Shown piece by piece: positions 12,876-61,548 of a stretch of DNA of 64,000 nucleotides. Source of the stretch: Dehalococcoidia bacterium. Its GTDB lineage: Bacteria > Chloroflexota > Dehalococcoidia > Bin125. The stretch's first letter is position 1; the number at the start of each line of letters is the position of its first letter. The notes beneath the pieces were generated by a model. It was not told the DNA's origin. It was given only the letters and a program-made list of their open reading frames with translations, and did no database searches. The DNA is taken from the NCBI GenBank assembly GCA_965221065.1, contig OZ244861.1, forward strand, positions 2,062,984 through 2,126,983, in the 5' to 3' direction. The position numbers and the translations under genes are program-made.

Positions 12876-14078
<1,203 letters not shown>

Positions 14079-14117
14079 CGCCGAACCGGAAACGTTGCAG
14101 GGCGGAAAGACGGCAAT

Positions 14118-14426
14118 ATGGCTCGGCAGAAGATACGCATCCGACTCAAGGCGTACGACCATCGGGTTCTCGATGAGTCGGCTGCGCAGATTCTCGACAC
14201 CGCCGAGAAGACTGGCGCTGGTGTCGCCGGGCCGATTCCGCTGCCCACCGAGATTCGCAAGTACACGGTGATTCGCTCGCCGTTCGTTCACAAGGACGGA
14301 CGCGAACAGTTCGAGATCCGCACCCACAAGCGGATCATCGACATCATTGAACCCACCGGCCGAACCGTCGATTCCCTGATGCGGCTGCAGCTGTCGTCTG
14401 GCGTCGACGTCGAAATCAAGCTCTAA
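14118..14426 (+). CDS. rpsJ: 30S ribosomal protein S10
   Basis: [19 protein letters not shown]... canonical. Confidence 0.9.
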
Positions 14427-22938: not shown

Positions 22939-23429
22939 TGGTCCTGCGCTTGAACGATCTGAGCCCGCCTCCCGGCTCACGCAAACGGCGAAAGCGCGTC
23001 GGCCGGGGTAACGCTTCGGGCAAAGGCACCTACTCCGGACGCGGGCTCAAGGGCCAACTCTCACGTTCCGGCCGCGACTACAACTCCGTCTTCGAGGGCG
23101 GCGCGATGTCGATCATGCGCACGCTGCCCAGGCGAAAGGGCTTCAAAGCCCCGTTCCGCGTCGAAGCGCAGCCGATCAATGTGGTCGATCTGGAACGCCG
23201 ATTCGCAGACGGTGATACGGTCGATGCAGACGCGCTCGTAGCTGCGGGTCTGCTGCGGCGTGCGACCCAGCGGTTTAAGGTGCTGGCCGGCGGCGAACTC
23301 GCCAGCGCACTGCATCTGCGCGTCGAGCGAATCTCTCCGGCCGCCGAAGCGAAGATCGTTGCCGCGGGCGGCAGCGTCGAGGTCATCAATGCAGAGAACG
23401 CAGACAGCAGCGGGGCCGACGAGGCCTAA
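22938..23429 (+). CDS. rplO: 50S ribosomal protein L15
   Basis: ...RKRVGRGNASGKGTYSGRGLKGQ... canonical; ATGA overlap with rpmD. Confidence 0.9.
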   Translation: MVLRLNDLSPPPGSRKRRKRVGRGNASGKGTYSGRGLKGQLSRSGRDYNSVFEGGAMSIMRTLPRRKGFKAPFRVEAQPINVVDLERRFADGDTVDADALVAAGLLRRATQRFKVLAGGELASALHLRVERISPAAEAKIVAAGGSVEVINAENADSSGADEA

Positions 23430-39924: not shown

Positions 39925-41028
39925 ATGCAGCGATCGGCGCAGCGAGGAACCAGCCCGCGACCGATCACCGTCGCCCTCGATGCGATGGGCGGAGACAACG
40001 CGCCCGCCACCATCGTTCGCGGCGCGCTCAGCGCGGCCCGAGATGTCGACGTGGATATCATCCTGGTCGGACGCGGCCGGGAGATCCGCAGCTTGCTGCC
40101 CGCAGCCCAACGCAATCTCAGGATTCACGAGGCCTCCGAAGCGATCGCCATGGACGCGCCGCCCACCGCGGTACGGCGGATGCGAGACTCCTCCATCATG
40201 GTCGGACTCGGCCTGCTCGCCGACGGCGAGGCCGACGCGTTCCTGTCCTTCGGCAATACAGGCGCAGTGATGGCCGGTTCGCTCTTCTCACTCGGCCGCG
40301 TGCCCGGAGTCGCGAGACCCGCGCTCGGCGCGCTCTTCCGAAACGGTCGCGGCACAACCTCGCTGCTGCTCGATGTCGGAGCGAACGTCGAAGCGCGGCC
40401 CCAGTACCTCTGCCAGTTCGCAACAATGGGCCGAGCCTACGTAGAACGCGTCCTCCGCCATCGCAATCCGAGCGTGGGCCTCTTGAACGTCGGTGAAGAG
40501 GAACTCAAGGGCACCAGCCTGCACCAGGAGACCTACCGCCTGCTCGAGCGCCAGGAACCGAACTTCGTCGGCAACATCGAGGCGAATCGGATGGTCGGCG
40601 GCGCAGCCGATGTGATCGTCTCGGACGGCTTCACCGGCAACGTTGCCGTCAAACTGACCGAGGGAGTGGCCGAACAACTCTTCGGCGAACTCAAACGCAG
40701 CATCCAGTCGAGCATGCTGCACATGGCCGGTGCATGGCTCATGCGCGGCGCGTTCCAGGGACTGCGAGCACACTGGGACTACGCCAAGGTCGGCTCCGCG
40801 CCCTTGTTCGGGATCGATGGAGCGGTACTGGTCGGCCACGGCCGCGCAAACGCCGAAGCGGTGGCCAGCGGGATCAAGTCGGCCCGCAGCGTCGTCGAAT
40901 CCGGCGTCGTCGACGCCATCCGCGACGCCGTCGCCGGAACCGCGCCGGTCGATGACGATTTCGATCCGTCGCCCCCCGAACGCAGCGACGGTCAGGTGAG
41001 CGACACTTGGCGCTACGAGCGCGGCTGA
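39925..41028 (+). CDS. plsX: phosphate acyltransferase PlsX
   Basis: ...ITVALDAMGGDNAP......FLSFGNTGAVMA...SDGFTGNVAVK... canonical PlsX blocks. Confidence 0.85.
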   Translation: MQRSAQRGTSPRPITVALDAMGGDNAPATIVRGALSAARDVDVDIILVGRGREIRSLLPAAQRNLRIHEASEAIAMDAPPTAVRRMRDSSIMVGLGLLADGEADAFLSFGNTGAVMAGSLFSLGRVPGVARPALGALFRNGRGTTSLLLDVGANVEARPQYLCQFATMGRAYVERVLRHRNPSVGLLNVGEEELKGTSLHQETYRLLERQEPNFVGNIEANRMVGGAADVIVSDGFTGNVAVKLTEGVAEQLFGELKRSIQSSMLHMAGAWLMRGAFQGLRAHWDYAKVGSAPLFGIDGAVLVGHGRANAEAVASGIKSARSVVESGVVDAIRDAVAGTAPVDDDFDPSPPERSDGQVSDTWRYERG

Positions 41029-41109
41029 ACCCCCACCTGAGCGCGGCGCGATGCGATACATTTGATGGGTTCCCCCCGGACATATGCGTACATCGCTTGG
41101 AGGACAGAG

Positions 41110-41436
41110 ATGGCAAAGCCCCAGGAAGTGACGGACGGCAGCTTCCAGGCAGACGTCAAGGACAACGACCTGCCGGTGCTCGTGGATTTCTGGGCGCCCT
41201 GGTGCGGTCCCTGCCGCATGGTTGCGCCGATCGTCGACGAACTCTCTGACGAATACGACGGCCGCGTCGCGTTCTACAAGCTGAACACCGACGAAAACCC
41301 GGGCATCGCCACCGAGTACGGGATCCGCAGCATCCCCACCCTGCTCGTCTTCAAGGACGGCGAAGTCGCCGGTCAGATCGTCGGCTTCCGCCCCAAGAGC
41401 GACCTCGCCAAGCGACTCGACGAAGTCCTCGCCTGA
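41110..41436 (+). CDS. trxA: thioredoxin
   Basis: WAPWCGPCRM active site; 108 aa from ATG 41110 with GGAGG ribosome-binding site. Confidence 0.9.
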   Translation: MAKPQEVTDGSFQADVKDNDLPVLVDFWAPWCGPCRMVAPIVDELSDEYDGRVAFYKLNTDENPGIATEYGIRSIPTLLVFKDGEVAGQIVGFRPKSDLAKRLDEVLA

Positions 41437-41559
41437 TCCGCGACGAACCCGCGATCCACACAACCACTCCCCCGAACGGGTCCGACCGCGCAACCAACAG
41501 CGCCGTCGGCCCCTTTCGCGTATCCTGCGCCCGTTACACCCCCACGAGAGGCGATTCAC

Positions 41560-42732
41560 ATGAAGGTCGGCGTTCACTTCAACTACCAGAACTACAGCGA
41601 CTGGGACCGATTCGAGGCCCAGGCCGTCTCCGACAAGCCGCAGGTCAGCGACCAGCAGGTCTACGAGGAGGAAATCCACCTCGGCGGACTCGTTGAACCG
41701 CTGGGCTTCGACTCCTACTGGTGTATCGACCACCACTTCTCGCCCTACATCATGACCTCGGGCGCGATGCAGAATCTGACCTACTTCGCCGGCAAGACCG
41801 AGCGCATCGACTTCGGCACCATGGTGATCGTCCTCCCCTGGTACGACCCCGTCGCCATCACCGAGCAGATCACCGTGCTCGACAACATGCTCCAGGGCCG
41901 CAAGCTCACCCTCGGCCTCGGTCGTGGCGCAGCCAAGCGCGAGTTTGAAGCCTTCCGTTCGCCGATGGGCGAGTCTCGCGACCGCTTCATGGAGTCGCTC
42001 GAAGTCGTGCGTAAGGGCCTGACCCAGGAATTCTTCTCCCACGAGGGCGACTTCTACACCATTCCGGAGACCACCATCCGCCCCCGCCCGCGCAACCCGC
42101 AGGCCCTGCTCGACTCGATGCGCGTCGCCTGGATTTCTCCCGAGACGCTCGAGATCGCCGCGAACGCCGGCCTCGGCATGCTCTTCACCAACTCGAAGAA
42201 GTGGGACGAGTACCAGGCCGATGTCAAGCGGTTCAACGAGATTCGCGTCTCCCAGGGCTGGGAGCCGAAGCAGCCCACCGTCGTCGCCAACGTCGCCTGC
42301 TTCGACACCGAGGAGGAAGCCTGGTCGGTCATGCTTGAGCACACCGGCAAGTTCCAGGAGAGCGTCGAGCGCCACTACCACTTCTCCGAATCGGCGCGCT
42401 TCGCCGCGACCAAGGGCTACAAGTACTACGCCGAGTTCGGCAAGACCAACGAGAAGACGACCCCTGAGCAGCGCGCCCAGTTCGCGGCCATGCCTCAGGC
42501 CTGGGGTACGCCCGACCAGGTCATCGAGAAGCTCAAGCACATCCAGCAGGTGACCGCCGCGGAAGAGCTGATCATGAACTTCCGCATCTCCGGCGGCATG
42601 CCCGCCGAGACCGCCGAGCGCAGCATGCGCCTCTTCGCCTCCGACGTGCTACCGGCGATCCATGAGCTCGAGGGCACCATGCCTGAGGAACTTTCGGGTC
42701 GCACCGCCGGTGAGCCAGTCCCGGCCGACTAG
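41560..42732 (+). CDS. LLM-class (luciferase-like) flavin/F420-dependent oxidoreductase
   Basis: TIM-barrel luciferase-like family pattern (MKVGVHF..., ...LGLGRG..., ~390 aa). Confidence 0.7.
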   Translation: MKVGVHFNYQNYSDWDRFEAQAVSDKPQVSDQQVYEEEIHLGGLVEPLGFDSYWCIDHHFSPYIMTSGAMQNLTYFAGKTERIDFGTMVIVLPWYDPVAITEQITVLDNMLQGRKLTLGLGRGAAKREFEAFRSPMGESRDRFMESLEVVRKGLTQEFFSHEGDFYTIPETTIRPRPRNPQALLDSMRVAWISPETLEIAANAGLGMLFTNSKKWDEYQADVKRFNEIRVSQGWEPKQPTVVANVACFDTEEEAWSVMLEHTGKFQESVERHYHFSESARFAATKGYKYYAEFGKTNEKTTPEQRAQFAAMPQAWGTPDQVIEKLKHIQQVTAAEELIMNFRISGGMPAETAERSMRLFASDVLPAIHELEGTMPEELSGRTAGEPVPAD

Positions 42733-47935: not shown

Positions 47936-48889
47936 CTAGCGCTGGTGGACCAGGGGCTCGCCGGGGATAGGCGAACGGGCGTGCAGGACGTAGTCAGTGG
48001 TAATCGAACCGATGTAGAGGTCGCGCATGTCGTCGCCGCCCCAACTGACGTTGGTCGGGTTCTGCATGATCTCGCCGTCGAGGTCTTCGATCATCGTCAC
48101 CACCTCGAGCTGCGGTGTGATTGCAACGACCTTGTTCGACATCACCAGCGTCACCCAGAGATTGCCCTCCTGGTCGAAGCCGCAGCCGTCGGTCAGACCG
48201 AGCTCACCGCGCTCTTCGGGCGAGAGGGGCTGCATCGCGTCGGCAAGGGCGATCGACTTGCCCAGCTGCGGGCCGTAGACCTCGGACTCGCCGAGCGTGC
48301 CGTCGGCGTGGATCGGGAAGCGCAGTACATGGCAGCCGCTCGTGGAGCAGACGTAGGCGTTCTCTTCGCGCGGGTCGAGCGTGATTCCGTTGGGGAACTC
48401 GACCTCGGTGGCGAGCATGGTCAGCGAGCCGTCCGTCTCGATCCGGAAGAGGAGGCCGTCGGGACCGCCGGCGGCGAGCGCGGCGTCTCCCGTGCGCGAA
48501 GTCGAGTGCGTGACCCAGATGCGGCCCTGAGAATCGACGTGGGGATAGTTGGACATGACCAGCGGGATGCCGTCGATCTCATCGGCGAGGACTTCAACCT
48601 CGCCGGTGTCGACGTCGAGCCGCTGCACCGGGCCGCTCGCGCCGCCGCCGTCGAGTCCGCCGACGTTGGCGATGATGATCCGGCCTTCGAGGTCCATGTT
48701 GTTGCCGTTGGGCAACCCGCCCGCGTTGCCGACGCGGTTGAGCGTGCCATCGGGCAGGGCCTCGGCGGCTGCCGAGGCCTGGTCGGCCATCCAGACGCGG
48801 CCGTCGCGCGAGACGACGACATCCTCCGGTCGCTGGACGCCGACGCCGACTTTGCTGAGTTGGTCCTTGCGGATTGGTGTGAGGGGCAT
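47936..48889 (-). CDS. SMP-30/gluconolactonase/LRE-like (SGL) six-bladed beta-propeller protein, paralog A
   Basis: From M 48889: MPLTPIRKDQLSKVGVGVQRPEDVVVSRDGRVWMAD...; repeated ...DSQGRIWVT..., ...DQEGNLWVT... blade motifs typical of lactonase/strictosidine-synthase-like propellers. Confidence 0.6.
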   Translation of the reverse strand: MPLTPIRKDQLSKVGVGVQRPEDVVVSRDGRVWMADQASAAAEALPDGTLNRVGNAGGLPNGNNMDLEGRIIIANVGGLDGGGASGPVQRLDVDTGEVEVLADEIDGIPLVMSNYPHVDSQGRIWVTHSTSRTGDAALAAGGPDGLLFRIETDGSLTMLATEVEFPNGITLDPREENAYVCSTSGCHVLRFPIHADGTLGESEVYGPQLGKSIALADAMQPLSPEERGELGLTDGCGFDQEGNLWVTLVMSNKVVAITPQLEVVTMIEDLDGEIMQNPTNVSWGGDDMRDLYIGSITTDYVLHARSPIPGEPLVHQR

Positions 48890-49065
48890 GGTGGTTTCTA
48901 GGTTGCAGCCTGTCTCGTTGCGCAAACTCACGCGGCGAGAGTCTAGCTGACGGTGAGGAAGTCGGTTGTACTCGAGCAACGATTGCGCCGCACGCACTCC
49001 GCACAGCCCGGCGTGTGCGCCTGGCCGACGGGCCGTCCATGCCGAATGACCGACACGTATGGCCG

Positions 49066-50016
49066 TTAGCGCTGATGGACCAGCGGCTCCCCGGGAATCG
49101 GCGAGCGGGCGTGGACGACGTAGTTGCTTCGGATTGAGCCGATGTACAGGTCGCTCATGTCGTTGCCGCCCCAGCTGACGTTGGTGGGCGCCTGCATGAT
49201 CTCGCCCTCGAGGTCCTCGATCATCGTGACGACCTCGAACTGCGGCGTGATCGCGACGACCTTGTTCGACATCGGCAGCGTGACCCAGAGGTTGCCCTCC
49301 TGGTCGAAACCGCAGCCATCGGTCAGGCCCAGCTCGCCGCGCTGCTCAGCCGACAACGGGCGCATGGCGGCCAGGTCCGCGACCGTCTTGCCCAGTTGAG
49401 GTCCGTAGACCTCGCGCTCGCCGAGCGAGCCGTCCTCGTTGATCGGGAAGCGCAGCACGTGGCAACCCAAGGTCGAGCAGACGTAGGCGTTCTCTTCCTG
49501 TGGGTCGAGCGTGATGCCGTTGGCGAACAAGATGTCAGTCGCGAGCATCGTCAGCGAACCGTCGGTCTCGATGCGGAAGAGGAAGCCGTCAGGCTCGCCG
49601 GAGAACGCGTCGGCACCCGACTGCGACGTCGAGTGGGTCACCCAGATGCGCCCCTGCGAGTCGACGTGCGGGTAATTGGACGAGACCAGCGGGATCCCGT
49701 CGATCTGATCCGCCAGCACCTCAATCTCGCCGCTCTCCACATCAAGGCGCTGGACCGGACCTCTGCCGCCCGGCGTCTCGAGTCCGCCGACATTGGCGAT
49801 GACGATCCGGCCTTCGGCGTCCATGTTGATCCCGTTGGGCGTCCCGCCGGCATTGCCGACTCGGTTCAGCGTGCCATCGGGCAGCGCCTCGACGACGGCC
49901 GACTCGGGGTCGGCGAGCCAGACGCGTCCGTCTCGGGAGACGACGACATCTTCCGGTCGTTGCGCGCCAACGCCGACTTTGCTGAGTTGGTCCTTGCGGA
50001 TTGGGGTGAGGGGCAT
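49066..50016 (-). CDS. SMP-30/gluconolactonase/LRE-like (SGL) beta-propeller protein, paralog B (~80% identical to A)
   Basis: From M 50016: MPLTPIRKDQLSKVGVGAQRPEDVVVSRDGRVWLAD...; colinear with paralog A over its full length. Confidence 0.6.
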   Translation of the reverse strand: MPLTPIRKDQLSKVGVGAQRPEDVVVSRDGRVWLADPESAVVEALPDGTLNRVGNAGGTPNGINMDAEGRIVIANVGGLETPGGRGPVQRLDVESGEIEVLADQIDGIPLVSSNYPHVDSQGRIWVTHSTSQSGADAFSGEPDGFLFRIETDGSLTMLATDILFANGITLDPQEENAYVCSTLGCHVLRFPINEDGSLGEREVYGPQLGKTVADLAAMRPLSAEQRGELGLTDGCGFDQEGNLWVTLPMSNKVVAITPQFEVVTMIEDLEGEIMQAPTNVSWGGNDMSDLYIGSIRSNYVVHARSPIPGEPLVHQR

Positions 50017-50030
50017 GTGGTTGATCCTGT

Positions 50031-51557
50031 CTAGGAAACGACGTCGTCCCAGACGCCGACTTCGGGCCCGCGCCAGTCGTGCTCGACCCGCGGATTGTCG
50101 CCGAGCACCTGGATCGGTTTGGCGCCGGCGTCCCAGGCGGGGGCGTCGACGCCGGCACCGGCGGGGTTGCCGGTCTTGGCGAAGTTGAGCCACGTGTCCA
50201 TCGTCAACTCAGAGAACGCGTCGGCGACAGGTCCGCTTCCACAAAACTCGGGTGCCGCGTCGTGCGTCCCGAAGACGAAGGGCAGCTCGAGCGCATGGCA
50301 GGAACCCAGCGCCCCGTTCATGCCCGGAGACTTCCAGTCGAACAGGTAGGCATACGTCGGAGCACGCGAGGTCTGCGCGTCGGCGAGCCGGAGACCTGGG
50401 ACGCGCAGCATGATGTCTCCGATCGCGGCCACGAAGATCTCGTCGGCCGAGTCGTCCTCGCCACGCTCGCGCCTGGCTGCTCGATACGTGCCATAGGCCG
50501 ACTCCGGTTCCGGGTGCATCATCCCGAACATCGCGGTAGCCGCCTCGTCGGTCATCGGTTCCGTCGGTCCCGCCGCGAGCAGCAGCTTCATCTCTTCATC
50601 GAGCGATCCGACCAGCGTCGCCACGCCGTCGGCCGAGCCGTTGCGGATGTGGTCGATAGGCAGTTGCGAGAGAAACGCCCCATCGATCACAGGCTGGAAC
50701 GGCATCTGCGGTGTGGCCGATGCGCCGGCGTCCGCCATGTCGGCTGCGGATTCTGCGCTCGCGAGGGGGTCAACGGCGACCGACGCCGCCAGGATGTCGG
50801 AAGCGTCCGCCGCCATCAACGCGTCGACATCCTCCGGCTCCACGCCGAGCGCCGCGCAGAACTTGAACGCAGTGCCGTTGGTCTCCTCAACGCTGAGCGC
50901 ATTGTGCCCGGCGCCGCTCTGGGGGATCGCCTTCTGGAACAGCCCGGCCGCCTCCGGCGAGGCCATCAGCGAGGCGACGCTCATCCCGCCCGCCGACTCG
51001 CCGAAGATCGTCACGTTGCTAGGGTCGCCGCCGAAGTTGGCGATGTTCTGCTGCACCCACTTGAGCGCCGCGACCTGGTCGCGCATGCCGAAGTTGGTCT
51101 GGCCGAGCGCAGGTAGGTTCAGGAAGCCGAGCGCGCCGAGTCGGTAGTTGATCGTCACGATCACCACGTCGCCGCGGGAGGCGAGGTTGGCGCCGTCGTA
51201 GTAGTCCTCGCTGCCGGAGCCGATCGTGAACGCGCCCCCGTGGATCCAGACCATGACCGGCCGCGCGCCGTCCAGACCGGGCGTCCAGACGTTGAGGTAG
51301 AGGCAGTCCTCGCTCTGCGGCTGCGGCGGGTCGGAGACCGGCAGCAGAGCCTCCAGCATCTCGTTGGGCGCCTGGAGCGAGATCGGGCCGAACGACTTGG
51401 CCGCGCGAACGCCCTCCCAGGATTCGACTGGTTGCGGCGCTTTGAAGCGAAGCTCGCCAACCGGCGGCGCGGCGAATGGGACACCGCGGAACACGCAGAG
51501 TCCGTTCTCTTCCGATCCCTCGATCGTTCCGGCAGTGGTTTGCGCGATGGCGCTCAT
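50031..51557 (-). CDS. type-B carboxylesterase/lipase family protein
   Basis: GESAGG nucleophile elbow, ...VWIHGGAF... oxyanion motif; AAGGAGACG ribosome-binding site upstream. Confidence 0.8.
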   Translation of the reverse strand: MSAIAQTTAGTIEGSEENGLCVFRGVPFAAPPVGELRFKAPQPVESWEGVRAAKSFGPISLQAPNEMLEALLPVSDPPQPQSEDCLYLNVWTPGLDGARPVMVWIHGGAFTIGSGSEDYYDGANLASRGDVVIVTINYRLGALGFLNLPALGQTNFGMRDQVAALKWVQQNIANFGGDPSNVTIFGESAGGMSVASLMASPEAAGLFQKAIPQSGAGHNALSVEETNGTAFKFCAALGVEPEDVDALMAADASDILAASVAVDPLASAESAADMADAGASATPQMPFQPVIDGAFLSQLPIDHIRNGSADGVATLVGSLDEEMKLLLAAGPTEPMTDEAATAMFGMMHPEPESAYGTYRAARRERGEDDSADEIFVAAIGDIMLRVPGLRLADAQTSRAPTYAYLFDWKSPGMNGALGSCHALELPFVFGTHDAAPEFCGSGPVADAFSELTMDTWLNFAKTGNPAGAGVDAPAWDAGAKPIQVLGDNPRVEHDWRGPEVGVWDDVVS

Positions 51558-51608: not shown

Positions 51609-52298
51609 TCAGTCGTAGATGAAGTCGTCGGCGCCCGGACAGCGATCGATCAATACGCATTCGCCACACCTGGGTCGCTGCTTGTGACAAACCCGCCGAC
51701 CGTGGCGGATCAGCGTGACGTGGAAGTCGTAGTACTTGTCGGGCGGGAGCTGCGCCTCAAGCATGTCGTGCGCGGGAACCGCAGCAACCTTGGAGCCAAT
51801 CAGACCAAGCCGCTGGGCAACGCGGTGGACGTGAGTATCCACGGGCAGAGCCGGTCGACCGAGCGAGAACAGCAGCACGCAGGCGGCAGTCTTGGGTCCC
51901 ACGCCCGGCAGTTCGGTCAGCCACGCCTTCGCCTCATCGATCGGCATCTGCTCGAGCCGCGAGGCGTCCCAATCGCCCCCCAATCGATCCCGCAGCATGG
52001 CCAGCAACGCCTGCATTCTCGGCGCCTTGGTCCGCGCAAGACCGCCCGGGCGGATGGTCTCTTCCAACTCCTCGACCGGCGCTTCGAGTACGGCATCCCA
52101 GTCGGGATAGCGCTTCAGCAGTTGCTGAAAGGCCCGCCCGGAGTTGGTATCCGACGTGTTCTGCGAGAGCAGGGTCAGCACCAACTCAGTCACCGGATCA
52201 TTCGTCGCCCGCCAGGGCGTCAGCGGAGCCTCCCGGATCAACCGGTTGATAATCGCGGTCGGCCGCAGCGGTCTGGGAGTACTGCGTCGGCGAGGCAT
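51609..52298 (-). CDS. nth: endonuclease III (HhH-GPD with [4Fe-4S] cluster)
   Basis: ...LPGVGPKTAA... HhH motif and C-terminal Cx6Cx2Cx5C (CHKQRPRCGECVLIDRC). Confidence 0.8.
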   Translation of the reverse strand: MPRRRSTPRPLRPTAIINRLIREAPLTPWRATNDPVTELVLTLLSQNTSDTNSGRAFQQLLKRYPDWDAVLEAPVEELEETIRPGGLARTKAPRMQALLAMLRDRLGGDWDASRLEQMPIDEAKAWLTELPGVGPKTAACVLLFSLGRPALPVDTHVHRVAQRLGLIGSKVAAVPAHDMLEAQLPPDKYYDFHVTLIRHGRRVCHKQRPRCGECVLIDRCPGADDFIYD

Positions 52299-53464
52299 CA
52301 GGCACCTCCGCTCAGCGTGTGAGCTAGGCGCGCGTTGAACGGCAACACCGACAGCTCATCCGAATACGTGCTGTCGCCGCGCATGACGCGAAAGAACGCT
52401 CGCCAGAGGTAGTTGACGTGCTTCGAAGCCGTCAGCGCCAACCAGGGCCAGGTCGTGACGCACCAGTAGTAGAGCCGAGAAATGGTCCGGGCGGCGTCCA
52501 GTTCGGGCTGAATCTCGCGGTTGACCGACCTGGTGTACGCACCGGCAGGAGCGTCGGCGGTCAACACCGCCTGAGCGGCGAGGTTTGCGGAGTGGACGGC
52601 GTAAGCGATCCCCTCAGCCGTGAACTCGTCGGCCAGACCGGCGGCATCCCCGAGCAACAGCGCGCGCTCCGCGGCGACCGGTTCGACGATCGAGCGCCGA
52701 TACCGAATCGGGTGACCCTGCACATCGATCACGTCGGCCTCTTCGAGTCCGAGCCGGCGCAGGTAGCGGTCGGTCTGCTTGCGAATCGAGCGGCCTCGCC
52801 TGGGGGCGGCAACAACACCGACGGAGAGCTTGCCGTCCTTGGGGAACACCCAGCCGTAGCCCCATGGTCGGTAGCCGACATCAACGTTGGCGGCCTCATG
52901 CCAGTGCTCGAGCGCCGCAGTGGGCGCGGCCACTTCGACTTCGTATGCGGCGCTGCGAGTCGGTGCGGCGTCGATACCCAGCCAACGCGAGATCGGACCC
53001 GTGGCGCCGTCGGCCGCGAGGATGTACCGCGCGTTGACCGCTCCCGATGGAGTTTCGACCTCATAGGAGCCATCTGATTCTGAGATTGACTGAACCGAAG
53101 TCCCGTCACGCACAATTGCGCCAGAAGCGGCCGCGAGATCGGTCAGGAACTGGTCAAAGCGGTCGCGCATCACCATCCACGCAAGCGGCCACGCCGACGT
53201 CTTGCGAAACTGATGACACCCGAAACGCGAGACATCGATCGTGTCGACATAGCCCTCGCTGACCGGCGAGATGTCGAGGTCATCCAGGAGTTGCAGCGTT
53301 CTGGCCGGGACTCCACCGCCGCAGGCCTTGTAGCGGGGCAGCAATTGCTTCTCCAGCAGCAGGGTCGACGCGCCGGCGTCGCTCAGCCGTCGGGCGGCCG
53401 TCGCGCCGGCAGGGCCGGCACCAACCACTACCGCATCCCAAACCCGCTGGCCGTTCCTCGTCAT
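52298..53464 (-). CDS. FAD-dependent oxidoreductase, geranylgeranyl-reductase family
   Basis: N-terminal VVGAGPAGATAA dinucleotide motif, ...LLGDAAG... second motif; ~388 aa. Confidence 0.65.
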   Translation of the reverse strand: MTRNGQRVWDAVVVGAGPAGATAARRLSDAGASTLLLEKQLLPRYKACGGGVPARTLQLLDDLDISPVSEGYVDTIDVSRFGCHQFRKTSAWPLAWMVMRDRFDQFLTDLAAASGAIVRDGTSVQSISESDGSYEVETPSGAVNARYILAADGATGPISRWLGIDAAPTRSAAYEVEVAAPTAALEHWHEAANVDVGYRPWGYGWVFPKDGKLSVGVVAAPRRGRSIRKQTDRYLRRLGLEEADVIDVQGHPIRYRRSIVEPVAAERALLLGDAAGLADEFTAEGIAYAVHSANLAAQAVLTADAPAGAYTRSVNREIQPELDAARTISRLYYWCVTTWPWLALTASKHVNYLWRAFFRVMRGDSTYSDELSVLPFNARLAHTLSGGA

Positions 53465-54760: not shown

Positions 54761-54786
54761 GAAGCGGCCTCACCCGAGGCCGCTTC
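54761..54786. terminator. bidirectional terminator hairpin between convergent acyl-CoA dehydrogenase (+) and DinB-like gene (-)
   Basis: Perfect 11-bp stem GAAGCGGCCTC-accc-GAGGCCGCTTC followed by T-containing tail on both strands. Confidence 0.55.
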
Positions 54787-54812: not shown

Positions 54813-55322
54813 CTACTCCGAGCGGGCTCCCCTGAGCAAATCGTTGACGTGCTCACGAACATGGCCGACCGCCACGCCCTCAAGAACGTCCAGCAGTGTG
54901 CCCTCAACCCCACCTGCTGACCGGGTCGGCTGCTTGAGCAGTTCCTCATCCGCTGCTCGGATGGCGTCGATCGTCTCCGCCCGATTGCGCCGGAACTCGG
55001 TCAACAGTTGCTCGACCGGCTGATCGTCTCGGCGCGCGACCTGCTTCGCGTTGTAGGCGTCCATGTCGAAACCGGCCCCGCCGCCCTGCGGGACGTCTTC
55101 CCCTCCGGCTCGCTGCTCGGCTCGTTCGATCAGGCGCGGATATGTCCACTCGATCGCGGCAATGTGGGCCAGCAACTGACGCGCATTCCAGCCCTGCTCG
55201 TAGACGCCGCGCTCGAACGCCTCATCGGGCAGTTGCGCGACCGCTTCCTGGAACTCCTCGCTGTCTTGTTGGAGTTCGGCAATTAGTTCTTCGCGGTTGG
55301 AAATCGTCATGCCTCGGGCCAT
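54813..55322 (-). CDS. DinB/YfiT-like (four-helix-bundle, MDMPI N-terminal-like) protein
   Basis: ~165 aa with conserved His context (...QLLAHIAAIEW..., ...GHVREH...); last gene of the hpnG-led operon. Confidence 0.45.
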   Translation of the reverse strand: MARGMTISNREELIAELQQDSEEFQEAVAQLPDEAFERGVYEQGWNARQLLAHIAAIEWTYPRLIERAEQRAGGEDVPQGGGAGFDMDAYNAKQVARRDDQPVEQLLTEFRRNRAETIDAIRAADEELLKQPTRSAGGVEGTLLDVLEGVAVGHVREHVNDLLRGARSE

Positions 55323-56179
55323 TCCGCTTGCGTGAGTTCGATAGAGGCCTGCCAGAGCGCGTCTGCGGCCGAAGCGTCCGCGCCGTGTTGGTTCAGCTGC
55401 TGAATCTTGTGCCGGTGGAAGTAGGCGCCGGCATCATTTCGCTTGTCTGCGTCGCTCACCACATCGACAACCGGCGCCGCGCCCTTCTCGGCGCTGAGCA
55501 GAAACGGTTGGACCATGCGCCAGCCCACTCGCATCGGCCCGCGCAAGTCTCCATCGGCCCCAAGTTGAGTGCGGACCCCACCGGGGTGTACGGCGAACGA
55601 TGCGAGTCCCCCCGCGTGATATCGCCGATGCAGCCCGCGCGTGAAGAGGACATTGGCCAGCTTGGAGATCGAGTACGGCTTGGAACCACCCCCGTTGCGT
55701 TCGAGCTGGAGATCGTCGAGCGGCATCGCGCCGGCACGCTTGTAGAGCGCGGAGGAGACGTTGACGATTCGCGCGTCTTCCGATTCCATCAGCCGCGAGA
55801 ACAACAAGGACGTGAGCAGGAAGTGGCCGAAATGGTTGACCTGCATCGTCGTCTCAAGCCCGTCCTCCGTCAGGCTGCGGCTATTCAGGTTGACGCCGGC
55901 ATTGTTGACGAGGACGTCGAGATGCTCGGTCCGCTCGAGCAGTTCAGCCGCCGCCCGTCGCACCGACGTGAATGAGGCGAGGTCGAGGTCGAGCAGTTCA
56001 ACGGCGATCGAGCCACTGTCGTTCTGGATCTGGGAGACGGCGGCCTGTCCTCGCTCGACCGAACGGGCCGCCGCGAACACGTGCCAGCCGCGCCGCGCCA
56101 GCTCGGTGGCGGCGGCTTGGCCGATGCCGCTGTTGGCTCCGGTGATCAATGCGACAGCCGGTTTGGCTTGGTTGTTCAT
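55307..56179 (-). CDS. short-chain dehydrogenase/reductase (SDR), paralog 1
   Basis: ITGANSGIGQAAA Rossmann motif, NNAG, YxxxK context; ~290 aa. Confidence 0.8.
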   Translation of the reverse strand: MNNQAKPAVALITGANSGIGQAAATELARRGWHVFAAARSVERGQAAVSQIQNDSGSIAVELLDLDLASFTSVRRAAAELLERTEHLDVLVNNAGVNLNSRSLTEDGLETTMQVNHFGHFLLTSLLFSRLMESEDARIVNVSSALYKRAGAMPLDDLQLERNGGGSKPYSISKLANVLFTRGLHRRYHAGGLASFAVHPGGVRTQLGADGDLRGPMRVGWRMVQPFLLSAEKGAAPVVDVVSDADKRNDAGAYFHRHKIQQLNQHGADASAADALWQASIELTQAEWPEA

Positions 56180-56263
56180 CCGTCAAGTGTAAGAAACCCC
56201 TTGAGAGCGCCCGCTGCCAGGCGCCGCACTCGGGCCGTTGCGGCTCACGCTCATGGCCGGGAG

Positions 56264-57130
56264 TTAGGACAGGCTCCACTCCGCTCCGGTGATTTCGTTG
56301 CTTGCGTCCCAGAGGCGCTCGGCGGCCTGGCGGTCGCTGGCTTGCGGTTGCTGCTGCGTGCGGGTGTGGCGGTCGAAGTACTCGCCGGCGTCTGCGCGTC
56401 TCGCCCGGTCGGTGACGAGCTCGACGACCGGCGCCGCCCCCTGCTCGGGACTTCGAAGCAGTGGTCGCGCGACGCGGAGCGCCGCGCGCATGGGAGCAGG
56501 GAAGTTCCGCATGAAACTGGTCGCCACGACGCCGGGATGGACGGAAAAGGCGGCCAGTCCACGGTCGTGCGTGCGTTGATGCAGCTCGTTGGTGAACAGG
56601 ATGTTGGCCAGCTTGGTCGCGCAGTAGGGCCGGATTCCGCCCCAATAGTGCTCGAAGTTGAGGTCGTCCAGCGGCATCGCCTCAACGCGCTCGTAGACGC
56701 GCGAGCTGACGTTGACGACGCGTGCATCGTCCGACTCGAGCAGCGTCGGCAGCAGCAGCGAGGTGAGCAGGACGTGCGAGAAGTGATTCGTCTGCATCAT
56801 CGTCTCGAGGCCGTCGCGGGTGACCCGTCGCTCGTTGAGGGTCAGACCAGCGTTGTTGACCAGCACGTCGAGCCGCTCAGTACGCCCCAACAGTTCATCG
56901 GCTGCGCGTCGGACGGAGGCAAACGAGCCAAGATCCAGTTCCAGCAGTTCAACGGCGATCGAACCACTGTCCTTCTGGATCTGGGAGACGGCGGCCTGTC
57001 CTCGCTCGACCGAACGGGCGGCGGCGAACACGTGCCAGCCGCGCCGCGCCAGCTCGGTGGCGGCGGCTTGGCCGATGCCGCTGTTGGCTCCGGTGATCAG
57101 TACCACGGGCGGGGTTGATTGAGTACTCAT
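56264..57130 (-). CDS. short-chain dehydrogenase/reductase (SDR), paralog 2 (tandem duplicate)
   Basis: The N-terminal ~60 aa are nearly identical to paralog 1 (ITGANSGIGQAAATELARRGWHVFAAARSVERGQAAVSQIQ). ATG 57130 is preceded by a GGGAGG ribosome-binding site. Confidence 0.8.
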   Translation of the reverse strand: MSTQSTPPVVLITGANSGIGQAAATELARRGWHVFAAARSVERGQAAVSQIQKDSGSIAVELLELDLGSFASVRRAADELLGRTERLDVLVNNAGLTLNERRVTRDGLETMMQTNHFSHVLLTSLLLPTLLESDDARVVNVSSRVYERVEAMPLDDLNFEHYWGGIRPYCATKLANILFTNELHQRTHDRGLAAFSVHPGVVATSFMRNFPAPMRAALRVARPLLRSPEQGAAPVVELVTDRARRADAGEYFDRHTRTQQQPQASDRQAAERLWDASNEITGAEWSLS

Positions 57131-58128
57131 CGATCCTCCCTGTGAAACCACGCCACTGCGTCGCTGAACGTGGCGTCCAGATCGGTCTGTGGCATCTGCA
57201 GGACTTCAATGGCTTTGCGGCAATCGAAGTACTGCCGTTGGCGAGCTAGCCTGACACCGGCAATGGTCGCCCGTGGCTGATGTCCGGTCAAAGCGCTGAT
57301 CAGGAATTCGTCGACGACTGCAGCCGCGAGCGCGACGGTTGACGGGATTGCAACCCGGGGCTGCGGCGAGCCACCGAACACCGCGGCACGTTCGATGATC
57401 TGGCGCAGCGTCAGATTGCCTCGCTGGTGGCCGAGGATGTAGCGCTCGCCCACGTGCCCCATCATGGCCGCCTTGACATGCCCAACCGCAACGTCCGAGA
57501 CGTGCACGATGTTCAGCCCCGCCGTTCGGATGTAGGCCGGCATCGACCCACTCGCCGCATCTCGTATCAGCCGACCAGTGGGGGTGGGTTTCGGATCGAG
57601 CGGTCCGATTGGAGCGGTCGGCAGCACGCAGACGGCGGGCAGGGACTCGGCTTCGACCAGGTCGTGGACGAGTCGCTCGCTCAGAATCTTGGTTTCTTCA
57701 TAGGGTCCCGGAGCGTGTTCGACGGTGGCCCATTGCGACTCATCCGCCGGACGCGCCGGATCGCGCGGTGGGCCGACCGCGGCCACCGACGATGTGTGCA
57801 CGATCCGGTCGACCTGCGCCCGAAGCGCGGCCAACATCAGCGCTCGTGTGCCGTCGACGTTGGCGCGATAGGCGTCGCGACGCGCCCGCCGGCTCAGGTC
57901 GTACCGCGCCGCGACGTTGAATAGAGTGTCGACTCCGCCGACGGCCTCCGCCAGTGAACCCGAGTCGGTCAGGTCGCCGTAGACCATCTCGACGTCGAGG
58001 CCGTTCAGGCTGCGCTGGTCGCTGCCCGGACGAACCATCGCCCGGACCTCCACGCCAGCGTCGAGCGCTGCGCGCACCACGTGAGCCCCGATGAAGCCGT
58101 TGGCTCCGGTGACCAGGGCGCGTTTCAC
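57127..58128 (-). CDS. hpnA: NAD-dependent epimerase/dehydratase, hopanoid-associated sugar epimerase HpnA-like
   Basis: VTGANGFIGAHVVRAL..GVEVRAMVRPGSD...L.GL.VE.V.GDL.D resembles HpnA (TIGR03466-type) N-terminus; GTG start; lies adjacent to hpnG and near hpnH. Confidence 0.6.
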   Translation of the reverse strand: MKRALVTGANGFIGAHVVRAALDAGVEVRAMVRPGSDQRSLNGLDVEMVYGDLTDSGSLAEAVGGVDTLFNVAARYDLSRRARRDAYRANVDGTRALMLAALRAQVDRIVHTSSVAAVGPPRDPARPADESQWATVEHAPGPYEETKILSERLVHDLVEAESLPAVCVLPTAPIGPLDPKPTPTGRLIRDAASGSMPAYIRTAGLNIVHVSDVAVGHVKAAMMGHVGERYILGHQRGNLTLRQIIERAAVFGGSPQPRVAIPSTVALAAAVVDEFLISALTGHQPRATIAGVRLARQRQYFDCRKAIEVLQMPQTDLDATFSDAVAWFHREDR

Positions 58129-58148
58129 TGCGACTCAGCGGTCGTTGT

Positions 58149-58856
58149 CTAGTTGACCTGAACAGGCGCGAGGGCGGGAATCAACACAGTCAGCGCTCGC
58201 TCCAGCTCTTGCAACGCCGCGCGTCGTTGCAGACCTAACCCTGCCAGCTCGCGCAGCAGTTTCGGCCGCCGAATCGCGCCGAGCGCAATATCCATCGCGG
58301 TGGGCACGTCCCGCCGCCACTGACCGAACTCCACCGGAATGTCGTCGTCCAGCGCGTCGAGTACGACCCGGAGGGCGATAAAGGGCACGCTGGCCGAGGC
58401 GCACAACTCCGCCCACTCGCTGTCTTCCATCTGCACAATCTGTGCGCCCGACTCTGCCGCCGCCAGCTTCTCGGGGCGCGTGAACAGGACGCGAGGGGTG
58501 GTGATGCTGATTGCCGGGCGCCAGTAGAAATCGGCCTCGTTGAGTGTCCGCGATGCGCGCCGATAGAGCGGGCCGTCCAGTTCCCACCTGGCTTCGTCCG
58601 CCTGTCGCACAATCTGCTGCGGCAGCGTTAAGGCCGGACGCCGCATGTCGTTGGTCAGCCCTCCGGCTACCCCCACGCTCAGGATCGCGGTGATCTCGTC
58701 CGGATCGGTCGTTTCCAGCACCTGTTGGGCGGTATCTCGCGCCCGCTCCGGCCCGATGCCGCTCGTGATCAGGCGTGTACGCCCGCGGCCGGCGATGGCT
58801 GCACCGCCACGAGCGGTTTGCGCCTCCCAGGGCAGTGCCGTAGCGACGATCAGCAT
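58149..58856 (-). CDS. hpnG: PNP/MTAN-family nucleosidase, hopanoid-associated phosphorylase HpnG-like
   Basis: PNP_UDP_1 blocks (...LITSGIGPERA..., ...SVGVAGGL..., ...IVQMEDSEWAEL...); first gene of the operon containing hpnA. Confidence 0.55.
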   Translation of the reverse strand: MLIVATALPWEAQTARGGAAIAGRGRTRLITSGIGPERARDTAQQVLETTDPDEITAILSVGVAGGLTNDMRRPALTLPQQIVRQADEARWELDGPLYRRASRTLNEADFYWRPAISITTPRVLFTRPEKLAAAESGAQIVQMEDSEWAELCASASVPFIALRVVLDALDDDIPVEFGQWRRDVPTAMDIALGAIRRPKLLRELAGLGLQRRAALQELERALTVLIPALAPVQVN

Positions 58857-58947
58857 GAACAGAGTGTTGCATACATTCGCCGTTTGGTCGCAGTCGTAGA
58901 CTGTCTGAATCAGCCAGTGCCCCGGTGAACCCCTGAGAGTGCAGACG

Positions 58948-59733
58948 ATGTACGAAACGCTCCTCTACGACCTGGAAGACGGCATTTGCACCATCACGCT
59001 GAATCGGCCCGAGTCGCTCAACGCACTCAATGGGACGATGCTGACCGAGCTGCCCCTGGCCTGTGAGCAGGCCGCCGCTGACAACGACGTCCGTGTCGTG
59101 ATCCTGACCGGCGCCGGGCGCTTGTTTTGCGCAGGGGGCGACCTCAAGGACACCGGGCGCGGCGATGTCCGCAACCTTGAGCAGAGCATCTACAACCTGA
59201 CTCATTCGGAGCGCACATCGATCCTGCTGCACCAGATGCCCAAGCCGACCATCGCCGCGATCAACGGCGGCGCAGCCGGCGCGGGCTGCTCGATCACCCT
59301 CGCCTGCGATCTGCGCTACATGTCGACCACGGCGTATCTCTACACCGCCTTCCTCAAGGTCGGATTCTCAGGCGACTTCGGCGGCACCTGGACGCTGCCG
59401 CGACTGGTGGGCATGGGCAAGGCGCGCGAGATGTACCTGCTGCCCGACCGTGTGCACCCGGAAGAGGCGCTGTCGCTCGGTCTGGCCAACGGCGTCTACG
59501 ACCCGGAAGAGCTGATGCCCAACGTCCTGCAGGTCGCGGCGCAGTTGCGCGACTCGCATCCCGGCGCGATCGCGCAGATCAAGAACAACCTCAACGACGC
59601 CTTCACGATTCCTCTCTCCGAAGCTGTTCGGCGCGAGGCGGACCGGATGCGCCGCGTGGGCGAGAGTGAGGATTCGATCGAGGCACGACGGGCGTTCGTT
59701 GAGAAACGGCGTCCCGTGTTCAAGGGCAGGTGA
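58948..59733 (+). CDS. enoyl-CoA hydratase/isomerase (crotonase) family protein
   Basis: ...ITLNRPESLNAL..., ...AAINGGAAGAGCSITLACDLRY... oxyanion-hole motifs; alt GTG start 58939. Confidence 0.8.
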   Translation: MYETLLYDLEDGICTITLNRPESLNALNGTMLTELPLACEQAAADNDVRVVILTGAGRLFCAGGDLKDTGRGDVRNLEQSIYNLTHSERTSILLHQMPKPTIAAINGGAAGAGCSITLACDLRYMSTTAYLYTAFLKVGFSGDFGGTWTLPRLVGMGKAREMYLLPDRVHPEEALSLGLANGVYDPEELMPNVLQVAAQLRDSHPGAIAQIKNNLNDAFTIPLSEAVRREADRMRRVGESEDSIEARRAFVEKRRPVFKGR

Positions 59734-59776
59734 GTTGAACGGCCCGCAAGGGCCGACAGTCGGAGAGAGGTGCGCG

Positions 59777-60544
59777 ATGTTGCGAATGCGGCAGATCTGC
59801 CTGGTGGCTGAGGATCTGGACATGATCGAGGCGCACCTGCGAGGCGTCTTCGGGCTGGAGGTCTGTCACCGCGACCCCGGCGTGGGCCGGTTCGGCCTGC
59901 ACAACTTCCTCATGCCGATCGGCAACTCGTTCCTCGAAGTCGTCTCACCGATGATGCCCGGCACCGCCGGCGGGCGCTACCTGCGACGGCGCGGAGGCGA
60001 CGGCGGCTACATGGTCATCATGCAGTGCAGCGACATTGCCGCGAGACGCGAGCACGTTGCCAACCTCAGCATCCGCTTGATCACGGACTCTGGCAACGAT
60101 CAGACCGACGGGATCCAGCTCCACCCCAAGGATGTCCCCGGAGCGATCGCGGAGTTGCGCTGGAACACCGGCGACGACCAGCTCGACGGTCCCTGGAATC
60201 CCGCCGGCGACCACTGGCTGCCGGCCAAGCGTGAGCACGTGATCACCGCGATGACAGCGGCGGAGCTACAGAGCGACGACCCATCGGCAATGGCGGCTCG
60301 CTGGTCGGAAGTGCTGGAAGTCCCGACCGGCTCAGATGATGACGGTCACCCGACCGTCGCGCTGGATGACGCGACGCTTCGGTTCGTGGAGGCGTCGGAC
60401 GGCCGGGGAGAAGGTCTGGGCGGCCTCGAAGTGGCGACGATCGATCGAGGGCACGTCGTTTCGACGGCGCGCCATCATGACCTTGAGGTGTCGGAGGACG
60501 AGTCGGTCGTGATGCTCTGCGGCGTCCGCTTCAAGCTCGTCTAG
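59777..60544 (+). CDS. VOC-family (glyoxalase/bleomycin-resistance/dioxygenase fold) protein
   Basis: ATG 59777 with GGAGAGAGG ribosome-binding site; paired beta-alpha-beta-beta-beta modules (...ICLVAEDLD...HLRGVFGLEV...). Confidence 0.5.
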   Translation: MLRMRQICLVAEDLDMIEAHLRGVFGLEVCHRDPGVGRFGLHNFLMPIGNSFLEVVSPMMPGTAGGRYLRRRGGDGGYMVIMQCSDIAARREHVANLSIRLITDSGNDQTDGIQLHPKDVPGAIAELRWNTGDDQLDGPWNPAGDHWLPAKREHVITAMTAAELQSDDPSAMAARWSEVLEVPTGSDDDGHPTVALDDATLRFVEASDGRGEGLGGLEVATIDRGHVVSTARHHDLEVSEDESVVMLCGVRFKLV

Positions 60545-61548
60545 CGGATCGAACCAACGAAGCTACGCAGGCCGGCCTTGAGGTTGGTCGTGGCGTCGAT
60601 CACCGCCGACGCCTCGTAGCCGGAGTGAACCATGCAGTCGACGCACTTCGGGTTGCCCGAGGCGACGCCGTAGTTCTCCCATTCCGTCTCTTCGATCAGT
60701 TCCCTGAAGCTGTCAGCGTAGCCCTCATCCATCAAGTAACAGGGCTTCTGCCAGCCGAACACGGTGTACGTCGGGTTACCCCAGGGTGTGCAGTCGTACT
60801 CAATCTCCCCTTTGAGGAAGTCAAGGAACAGCTCGGAGTGGTTGAACTTCCAGTGCCTGGGCGGATCGTCGAGGATGTCGCGGAACAGTTCCTTGGTCTG
60901 GTTGCGAGCCAGGAAATGCTCCTGGTCCGGAGCCTTCTCGTAGGGGTAACCCGGCGAGATCATCAGCCCGTCGACGCCAATCTCCATCAGCTTGTCGAAC
61001 ATCATCCGGATCCGGTCGGGCTTGGCGCCCAGGAAGAAGGTGCTGTTCGTCGTCACCCGGAAGCCGCGCTCCTTGGCCGCCTCGATCGCGCGGATCGCGA
61101 CATCCCAGATGCCGTCCCGACAAACTGAGTCGTCGTGGTCCTGCTCGTACCCGTCGACATGGACAGAGAACGTCAGGTAGGGATCGGGCTCGAAGTCCTG
61201 CAGCTTCCGCTCGAGCAGGATCGCATTGGTGCACAGATAAACGAACTTCTTGCGCTCGGTGAATCCCTTGGCGATCTCGACGATGTCCTTGTGGATCAAC
61301 GGCTCGCCGCCGGCGATCGCAACGACCGGAGCGCCGCACTCTTCGACGGCGTCCCAGCACTGCTGCGGCGAAAGACGCCGGCGCAGGATGTCCGTCGGAT
61401 GTTGGATCTTGCCGCAACCGGCGCATTCGAGATTGCACTGCAGCAGCGGCTCGAGCATCAGCACGAGCGGGTAGCGCTCCGTCCGGCGAAGCTGCTGTCC
61501 AACGACGTACTTGCCAACCTGGATGGTCTGTCGTAACGGTGTGGCCAT
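60541..61548 (-). CDS. hpnH: adenosyl-hopene transferase, hopanoid-biosynthesis radical SAM protein HpnH
   Basis: Near-colinear with known HpnH: RYPLVLMLEPLLQCNLECAGCGKIQHP (CxxxCxxC), ...FVYLCTNA..., ...MISPGYPYEKAPDQEHFL..., ...KPCYLM..., ...KCVDCMVHSGYE... Confidence 0.75.
   Translation of the reverse strand: MATPLRQTIQVGKYVVGQQLRRTERYPLVLMLEPLLQCNLECAGCGKIQHPTDILRRRLSPQQCWDAVEECGAPVVAIAGGEPLIHKDIVEIAKGFTERKKFVYLCTNAILLERKLQDFEPDPYLTFSVHVDGYEQDHDDSVCRDGIWDVAIRAIEAAKERGFRVTTNSTFFLGAKPDRIRMMFDKLMEIGVDGLMISPGYPYEKAPDQEHFLARNQTKELFRDILDDPPRHWKFNHSELFLDFLKGEIEYDCTPWGNPTYTVFGWQKPCYLMDEGYADSFRELIEETEWENYGVASGNPKCVDCMVHSGYEASAVIDATTNLKAGLRSFVGSIR

Follow-up and report, generated by a model that had tools for sequence, protein, structure and literature searches.

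A Dehalococcoidia hpnG-hpnA operon extended by short-chain dehydrogenase and DinB-like genes: a lineage-restricted candidate for ribosylhopane reduction

Most extended hopanoids derive from bacteriohopanetetrol (BHT), which is also the parent compound of the C35 geohopanes that serve as biomarkers. We analyzed a 64-kb stretch of a Dehalococcoidia bacterium genome (GenBank assembly GCA_965221065.1, contig OZ244861.1, positions 2,062,984 to 2,126,983 of the forward strand; G+C 62.5-68%), hereafter the window, in which the hopanoid genes hpnH, hpnG and hpnA lie close to two genes for classical short-chain dehydrogenases/reductases (SDRs) and one for a DinB-like protein. An earlier reading of this DNA (the original prediction) had proposed the two SDRs as candidates for the reductase that converts ribosylhopane to BHT. 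Here we report that an SDR gene and a DinB-like gene are kept downstream of hpnG-hpnA throughout a deep Chloroflexota clade. With the evidence for its role coming from gene neighborhood within this single syntenic lineage, the SDR can reasonably be regarded as a plausible, lineage-restricted candidate. The features of the locus are listed below, with positions counted from the first letter of the window.

60541-61548, minus strand: hpnH, radical-SAM adenosylhopane synthase, 335 amino acids (TIGR03470, Radical_SAM + DUF3463)
59777-60544, plus strand: Glyoxalase_3/VOC-fold protein, 255 amino acids (PF13468, 28.9 bits; weak methylmalonyl-CoA-epimerase-like match)
58939-59733, plus strand: enoyl-CoA hydratase/isomerase family protein, divergent from hpnG (ECH_1, 205 bits)
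58149-58856, minus strand: hpnG-like adenosylhopane nucleosidase, 235 amino acids, gene 1 of the operon (best NCBIfam family TIGR03468)
57127-58128, minus strand: hpnA, hopanoid-associated extended-SDR 'sugar epimerase', 333 amino acids (TIGR03466)
56264-57130, minus strand: SDR2, classical NADP(H)-type SDR, derived 'type 2' paralogue, 288 amino acids (adh_short, 126 bits)
56943-57099, minus strand: gene-conversion tract in SDR2 (partner tract in SDR1, 55992-56148)
55307-56179, minus strand: SDR1, classical NADP(H)-type SDR, ancestral-like 'type 1' paralogue, 290 amino acids (adh_short, 128 bits)
54813-55310, minus strand: DinB/YfiT-fold putative metalloprotein, 165 amino acids (DinB_2, MDMPI_N)
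54761-54786, minus strand: hairpin terminator closing the operon (11-bp GC stem, then U-rich UUGAUGUUGU)

By their spacing, hpnG, hpnA, SDR2, SDR1 and the DinB-like gene are predicted to form one tightly packed minus-strand unit. A gap of 20 nt separates hpnG from hpnA and one of 84 nt separates SDR2 from SDR1. After start-codon refinement, the hpnA TGA and the SDR2 ATG (57130) overlap as ATGA, as do the SDR1 TGA and the DinB ATG (55310), an arrangement by which the DinB-like gene would be translationally coupled to SDR1. On the minus strand within 54813-58856, a consensus scan gave no terminator-like site. The hairpin at 54761-54786 lies in an 80-nt segment with a minimum free energy of -41.5 kcal/mol (z = -5.1) and is common to the operon and a convergent acyl-CoA dehydrogenase gene. 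Between hpnH and hpnG are 1,684 bp occupied by the plus-strand enoyl-CoA hydratase and Glyoxalase_3 genes, whose position is kept in all clade loci. The hpnH and Glyoxalase_3 genes are convergent, with 3' ends that overlap by 4 nt (60541-60544), and the consensus scan gave no terminator-like site at this junction either.

Nine related contigs (L082-L087 and L091-L093; 11 kb to 3.65 Mb, several circular) made up the clade sample. All nine carry hpnG, hpnA, zero to two toxin-antitoxin pairs, SDR and DinB in this order on one strand; the shortest, L085, ends inside hpnA. Their SDRs are 87 to 45% identical to SDR2. The DinB gene follows the SDR in 9/9 relatives, and the two overlap or nearly abut throughout. 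An overlap of the hpnA stop with the SDR start is seen in the window, L082 and L092, and thus with both SDR paralogue types described below. Upstream, hpnG adjoins hpnA and stands at a distance of 1.7-4 kb to hpnH; this holds for the window and for the eight contigs that span both (L082-L084, L086, L087 and L091-L093). In 8/8 contigs reaching that far, hpnH is found past the same two plus-strand genes. The flanks vary, with questin-oxidase-like, SDH-protease and transposase genes and small open reading frames (ORFs) between the DinB/ACAD and the hpnH/glyoxalase genes. Ratios of dN/dS, which are to be read with dS near saturation, were 0.05-0.08 for HpnH, 0.10-0.29 for HpnG, 0.13-0.18 for HpnA, 0.17-0.28 for the SDR and 0.05-0.10 for DinB; over all genes the range of 0.03-0.29 indicates purifying selection. 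The original prediction had looked to conservation of the SDR pair with hpnG/hpnA in relatives: one SDR is conserved in all nine, which leaves the prediction standing on this count, but the pair is not.

HpnH scores 518.5 bits against TIGR03470, for which the curated equivalog cut-off is 225, and covers profile positions 1-318 of 318. PF04055 (73.5 bits) is accompanied by a C-terminal DUF3463 domain (PF11946, 192.5 bits). The protein carries the radical-SAM motif QCNLECAGCGKIQHP, its C38/C42/C45 cluster (CNLECAGC) is invariant in 9/9 sequences, and its identity across the clade is 83-93%; members of its protein cluster are named HpnH by NCBI.

The hpnG-like protein is more divergent. Its best family, by 35 bits, is TIGR03468, where it scores 89.8 bits and does not reach the cut-off of 187.1; its clade orthologues score 100-106 bits. 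The HpnG of L088, a Dehalococcoidia contig with a canonical hopanoid cluster, is likewise under the cut-off, and because it reaches only 116 bits the cut-off excludes Chloroflexota HpnGs in general. The window protein has the PNP/MTAN fold (PF01048, 43.3 bits), and its M143-E144 and R163..D167 align with the ME and RxxSD motifs of MTAN. Nine sequences, that of L088 among them, share E11, S60-G62-A64-G65 (SxGxAGG), E144 and D167 without exception, and M143 and R163 are invariant as well. Since the MTAN catalytic and ribose-binding residues are conserved, a role as a hydrolytic nucleosidase is favored.

For HpnA, the window protein scores 360.0 bits against TIGR03466, 7.6 bits under the cut-off of 367.65, and its orthologues in L092 (390.3) and L087 (370.5) are above it. 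The next-best family, SdmB, gives 205 bits versus a cut-off of 600, and the window protein is 41-48% identical to hpnA genes that adjoin shc/hpnH in metagenome loci. Collectively, an HpnH equivalog, HpnA orthologues that pass their cut-off and an HpnG whose best family is HpnG support, at the level of protein families, the assignment of the region as a hopanoid side-chain gene set. Locus and assignments agree with the original prediction, which had named these genes within 54813-61548, where all of them are found on the minus strand. It had read the radical SAM gene at 60541-61548 as HpnH, placed an operon led by a PNP/MTAN-family HpnG-like gene about 1.7 kb away, followed it with an HpnA-like gene and closed it with a DinB-like protein.

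Both SDRs retain the signatures of the classical branch of the family. The motifs TGxxxGxG and NNAG and the catalytic tetrad N-S-Y-K are intact in SDR1 and SDR2, and T13-G14...G18-G20, N92-N93-A94-G95, N115, S143, Y169 and K173 are invariant in alignments of 19 and of 47 sequences that include both window copies. Neither protein has a transmembrane segment. R39, a basic residue after strand beta-2, is also invariant; in the alignment it matches the Arg of the 'MACR' segment in LPOR, a protein whose structure was solved with NADPH. The arginine of this 'ACR' motif contacts the NADPH 2'-phosphate. By this aligned residue, the SDRs would prefer NADP(H). Y169 and K173 align with the LPOR catalytic pair. 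As far as sequence can tell, features of an NADPH-dependent carbonyl reductase are supported for both SDRs.

An AlphaFold2 model of SDR1 has a mean predicted local distance difference test (pLDDT) score of 92.5, and its nearest solved folds are LPOR (TM-score 0.83) and 3RD5. In the model, the low-confidence loop at residues ~201-225, which differs between the paralogues, is the predicted substrate lid. The closest solved sequence is that of 3RD5, an uncharacterized SDR from Mycobacterium paratuberculosis, which matches the clade profile over its full length at 183 bits. LPOR structures (6L1H, 7JK9, 6R48) resemble the window SDRs with a TM-score of 0.83 and 26-30% identity; both LPOR and 3RD5 belong to the window SDRs' branch of the classical family. 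The three groups can be aligned at the Gly motif, at the 'A(A/C)R' NADPH arginine and at the Tyr/Lys pair. LPORs are NADPH-dependent enzymes with a lipophilic, membrane-associated substrate. Neither LPOR nor 3RD5 allows a substrate to be transferred to the window SDRs. Membership in LPOR itself is rejected: TIGR01289 gives 108-113 bits versus 331, and in the alignment the window protein lacks the insertion that LPORs carry ahead of the catalytic Tyr. The best-scoring family is PRK06197 (NF004846), with 202.1 bits for SDR1 and 223.3 for SDR2; on score, membership is rejected here as well, the cut-off being 268.

SDR1 and SDR2 share 65% protein identity and 69% DNA identity. Within one tract (nt 32-188 of the coding sequence), which spans the NADP-binding N-terminus of both, 153 of 157 nt are identical (97.5%) and third-codon-position identity is 0.90; outside the tract it is 0.22-0.55, and silent sites are near saturation. 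In a neighbor-joining tree of 118 homologues, SDR2 falls in the derived 'type 2' clade and SDR1 in the 'type 1' clade, which resembles deeper branches and has a 2-residue GxDGD insertion. By these comparisons, the duplication itself is old and only the patch of gene conversion is recent. The original prediction had called the SDRs tandem and recently duplicated. The tandem arrangement holds; the recent duplication is rejected, since the copies belong to separate old paralogue clades, their third-position identity is low and the similarity peak is the 157-nt conversion tract.

Relatives differ in the paralogue that they carry. L082 has a single type-2 SDR that is 87% identical to SDR2; L084, L086, L087 and L091 have a type-1 'GxDGD' SDR, and the single SDR of L092 lies on a separate deep branch. 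In L083, a type-2 SDR is accompanied by a 96-residue ORF (L083:9714-10004) between hpnA and the intact gene. This ORF matches only SDR residues ~73-149 and is a decaying second copy. Because relatives keep only one SDR, either paralogue is probably sufficient.

The product of the last gene of the operon matches DinB_2 (PF12867) at 43.5 bits, with a gathering threshold of 24.8, and MDMPI_N (PF11716) at 42.2 versus 24.2. DUF1706 gives 28.9 bits, and no NCBIfam equivalog cut-off is reached. All 8 orthologues compared retain H49 and a C-terminal HxxxH (H150 and H154), and the H49 region aligns with the metal-binding His region of YfiT. The helix-2 His, the C-terminal HxxxH and the four-helix signature are shared with YfiT/BstA and with mycothiol-dependent DinB enzymes (PF12867, PF11716, PF04978); similarity to the solved YfiT structure 1RXQ is weak (21.5 bits). 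A single-sequence AlphaFold2 model (pLDDT 46.9) was too poor to use. Together, these matches point to a putative DinB-fold metalloprotein with a conserved His triad. We know of no description of a DinB-fold protein in partnership with an SDR and hpn genes.

The arrangement is a variant of the known type of hpn cluster. Canonical hpn islands (Zymomonas, Rhodopseudomonas and Burkholderia, and the acidobacterial 'cluster C' hpnA-hpnG-ug1; PMC5462960) share with the window hpnH, hpnG and hpnA, the same-strand adjacency of hpnG and hpnA, and the predicted early chemistry from adenosylhopane to ribosylhopane. Unlike those islands, the window has two opposite-strand genes between hpnH and hpnG, neither shc nor hpnCDE within reach, genes for an LPOR/3RD5-like SDR and for a DinB-fold protein after hpnA, and a very divergent hpnG (89.8 bits). 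A second comparison is with a cluster from the same phylum. In L088 (2.42 Mb; L088:2268-11953) the order is hpnC-hpnD-hpnE-x-YjbQ-ispA (polyprenyl synthase)-hpnH-hpnG-epimerase-shc. Like the window, L088 has hpnH, hpnG and an NAD epimerase-family gene in series and YjbQ upstream of hpnH; after the epimerase gene, shc stands in place of the SDR-SDR-DinB genes of the window. Its HpnH is 43% identical to that of the window, and the gene at the epimerase position (TIGR03466, 98 bits) is not HpnA.

A 2025 survey says of the enzyme for the ribosylhopane-to-BHT conversion that it 'has not yet been established' (PMC12583986), and in a 2026 review the step is drawn as one that may be non-enzymatic (PMC13459092). 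As the original prediction supposed, the enzyme, missing ever since the pathway was first drawn up, is still an orphan in reviews to 2025-2026, and in the literature on ribosylhopane we found no reductase named for BHT formation. As Bodlenner et al. 2015 is cited in the survey, the ribosylhopane-to-BHT activity comes from a cell-free system only (PMC12583986). HpnA, the usual suspect, was reported not to be essential for BHT in B. cenocepacia, and hpnA is absent from some BHT producers (PMC5462960); its apparent dispensability leaves room for another reductase.

We tentatively read the region as the C35 side-chain part of the hopanoid pathway, in which hpnG-hpnA would be extended by an SDR, as reductase, and by a DinB protein. 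HpnH enzymes join a 5'-deoxyadenosyl radical with diploptene to give adenosylhopane, and as a member of this family the window protein would carry out the first step. HpnG, with its MTAN-type Glu/Glu/Asp residues, would then remove adenine to leave ribosylhopane. In the third step, an SDR with NADPH would reduce the C-35 aldehyde of open-chain ribosylhopane to BHT, and HpnA and the DinB-like protein may act on the same side chain. That the SDR works in hopanoid side-chain metabolism at all seems to us slightly better than an even prospect. That it reduces ribosylhopane to BHT, as neighborhood and chemical fit suggest, is a guarded proposal whose failure would not surprise us. The most specific version, in which one or both SDRs are a dedicated NADPH-dependent ribosylhopane reductase recruited in one Chloroflexota lineage and the coupled DinB protein is a new accessory enzyme of side-chain maturation that might, for instance, present or open the ribose ring, is rather doubtful. 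The SDR-DinB extension is clade-specific and therefore cannot be the general BHT-forming enzyme; if the reductase role is correct, it would be at most a clade-specific recruitment.

A number of observations weigh against this proposal. In the 2025 survey, there was no obvious candidate gene near alphaproteobacterial hpn clusters (PMC12583986). In 80 JGI metagenome loci chosen by their hpnH (55-65% identity to window HpnH), of which 21 have shc, 13 hpnG and 13 hpnA, neither tblastn nor profile search found an SDR or DinB homologue, and the canonical L088 cluster also has neither. Co-occurrence of the SDRs with hpnG/hpnH, which the original prediction had put forward as a check, is thus seen in the nine clade contigs and fails in the 80 metagenomic loci and L088. 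On the other side, the SDR subfamily and the DinB protein share a restriction to this context, which counts for the proposal: in profile searches the DinB protein was found in clade loci only, and the nearest outgroup SDR, P0114 (48%), lies between phosphotriesterase and peptidase_S9-like genes with no hpn or DinB gene. A genome scan with the SDR alignment, whose patterns are generic SDR motifs and whose best loci are <=42% identical among the matches listed, serves as a negative control only: 80 genome loci with SDR relatives (25-42%, among the matches listed) have no HpnH, HpnG or DinB homologue nearby. Among the matches listed, relatives at 35-42% identity are as common in Deinococcus, Hymenobacter and Bacillus, in which SHC is rare or absent, as in hopanoid producers (Streptomyces, Acidobacteriaceae). 

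Within the clade, HigB(Gp49)/HigA(HI1420)-type toxin-antitoxin genes or their remnants sit at the hpnA|SDR junction of five relatives (L084:9339-9994, L085:419-1074, L086:9770-9997, L087:9688-10050 and, with two pairs, L091:8639-9997), so the junction tolerates disruption; it has the look of a site within the operon where insertions recur. Moreover, the same contigs show synteny over the whole ~20 kb neighborhood (YjbQ ... NifU ... hpnH ... ACAD ... HhH-GPD ... SGL ... amidohydrolase). The adjacency of SDR and hpn genes may therefore be inherited, not selected, and is weak evidence of coupling. Finally, searches for homologues of squalene-hopene cyclase (SHC) with the A. acidocaldarius enzyme and with a Chloroflexota SHC (P0165) returned many Chloroflexota SHCs, none of the best 120 matches lying on a clade contig. 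The A. acidocaldarius query matches PDB 1GSZ at 1495 bits. What stands of the original proposal is a conserved SDR with the features of an NADPH-dependent reductase; the pair is not conserved, and in the loci sampled outside the clade no SDR or DinB homologue accompanies hpn genes.

Much of this would also follow if the SDR and DinB genes were a self-contained module, for instance one that detoxifies carbonyls or quinones with a DinB protein resembling thiol transferases, that rides with hpnG-hpnA through inherited synteny. BHT, if made, would then come from HpnA or from a housekeeping aldehyde reductase, as must hold in other bacteria. We take this to be a serious possibility, short of a probable one. 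It is in keeping with SDR-DinB being the tightest and most consistent pair of the locus (4-nt overlaps in most loci), with the toxin-antitoxin insertions or pseudogene remnant that part hpnA from the SDR in L083-L087 and L091, and with the absence of SDR/DinB genes near hpn genes in every other sampled lineage. The DinB fold is best known from thiol-S-transferases, and other bacteria that make BHT do so without a gene of this kind (PMC12583986, PMC5462960). The operon itself argues the other way. The hpnA/SDR stop-start overlap, found in three lineages, argues for one transcription unit, as do gaps that stay at 3-50 nt even around the inserted toxin-antitoxin genes; the block persists while flanking genes turn over, and in the sampled loci the SDR-DinB pair was nowhere seen without hpnG-hpnA.

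The same operon linkage that speaks for a ribosylhopane reductase would serve equally for an SDR that, with DinB and/or HpnA, acts on the HpnG product to tailor the side chain in another way, by oxidizing the lactol to ribonylhopane (a lactone) or by epimerizing or oxidizing a hydroxyl to give a clade-specific bacteriohopanepolyol. Oxidation of sugar lactols is common among SDRs. In R. palustris mutants and Nitrosomonas, ribonylhopane has been considered as an intermediate or a side product (PMC4263297). The presence of two SDR-superfamily enzymes, HpnA and a classical SDR, in one operon suggests more than one redox step. The DinB protein, for its part, also matches DUF1706/ClbS-type hydrolases. 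We nonetheless consider such tailoring unlikely: Arg39, aligned with the NADPH-site arginine of LPOR, favors NADPH and hence reduction in vivo, and no precedent links DinB-fold proteins to lactone hydrolysis. A far slimmer prospect is that the lineage lacks shc and that its HpnH-, HpnG- and HpnA-like enzymes, with SDR-DinB, adenosylate and process some other terminal-alkene isoprenoid. No shc was found in the 64-kb window by tblastn with the A. acidocaldarius SHC, as the original prediction had observed, or within ~20 kb around the cluster in the nine relatives. Added to this are the clade contigs missing from the SHC matches, the ~30 closest non-clade HpnH genes, which are also unlinked to shc, and a geranylgeranyl-reductase-family gene 1.3 kb away. 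Against a non-hopanoid substrate, HpnH matches its equivalog model at 518 bits and the gene evolves under strong constraint. SHC occurs in Chloroflexota, at lower frequency (10.1101/2025.07.29.667474), and in surveyed genomes hpnG, hpnA and related genes are confined to those with SHC and HpnH (10.1101/2025.07.29.667474, PMC12583986). Hopanoid genes are, moreover, often dispersed (PMC5462960). The miss in the SHC searches is uninformative because it concerns the best 120 matches only and the HpnH of the query lineage is just 43% identical to that of the window.

Should the reductase reading of the SDR prove true, it would be the first enzyme from any organism to be identified as forming BHT. 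This would mean that the BHT step can be enzyme-specific, give a handle for analogous reductases elsewhere and extend hopanoid biosynthesis to an uncultured Chloroflexota group. Should it fail, non-dedicated reductases for the BHT step would gain weight. In either case, an SDR joined to hpnG-hpnA is a concrete protein with which ribosylhopane reduction can be tested.

The large ORFs of the window were considered as possible hidden shc genes and rejected, as they belong to other families or have no Pfam match. Two without a match, of 750 amino acids (40288-42540, minus strand) and 928 amino acids (11541-14327, minus strand), overlap plus-strand ORFs and are probably shadow ORFs typical of high-G+C DNA. 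Among JGI loci, most of the ~30 closest non-clade relatives of the window HpnH (L094-L124, 59-65% identical) are 'orphan' hpnH genes, with neither shc nor hpnG nor hpnA in up to 10 kb around them.

Several further genes were noted around the operon. The geranylgeranyl-reductase-family flavoprotein gene at 52298-53464 (minus strand), 1.3 kb past the operon, scores 210 bits against TIGR02032 (cut-off 158.8); it is kept in several relatives, with only fragments in L082, and adds a further isoprenoid-related gene to the surroundings of the hpn genes. A carboxylesterase gene (508 amino acids) lies at 50031-51557. Tandem SMP-30/gluconolactonase (SGL) paralogues occupy 47936-48997 and 49066-50193 on the minus strand, and relatives carry one SGL gene. 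Elsewhere in the window, a SecY gene (23260-25137, plus strand; PF00344, 336 bits) may mark a ribosomal-protein region.

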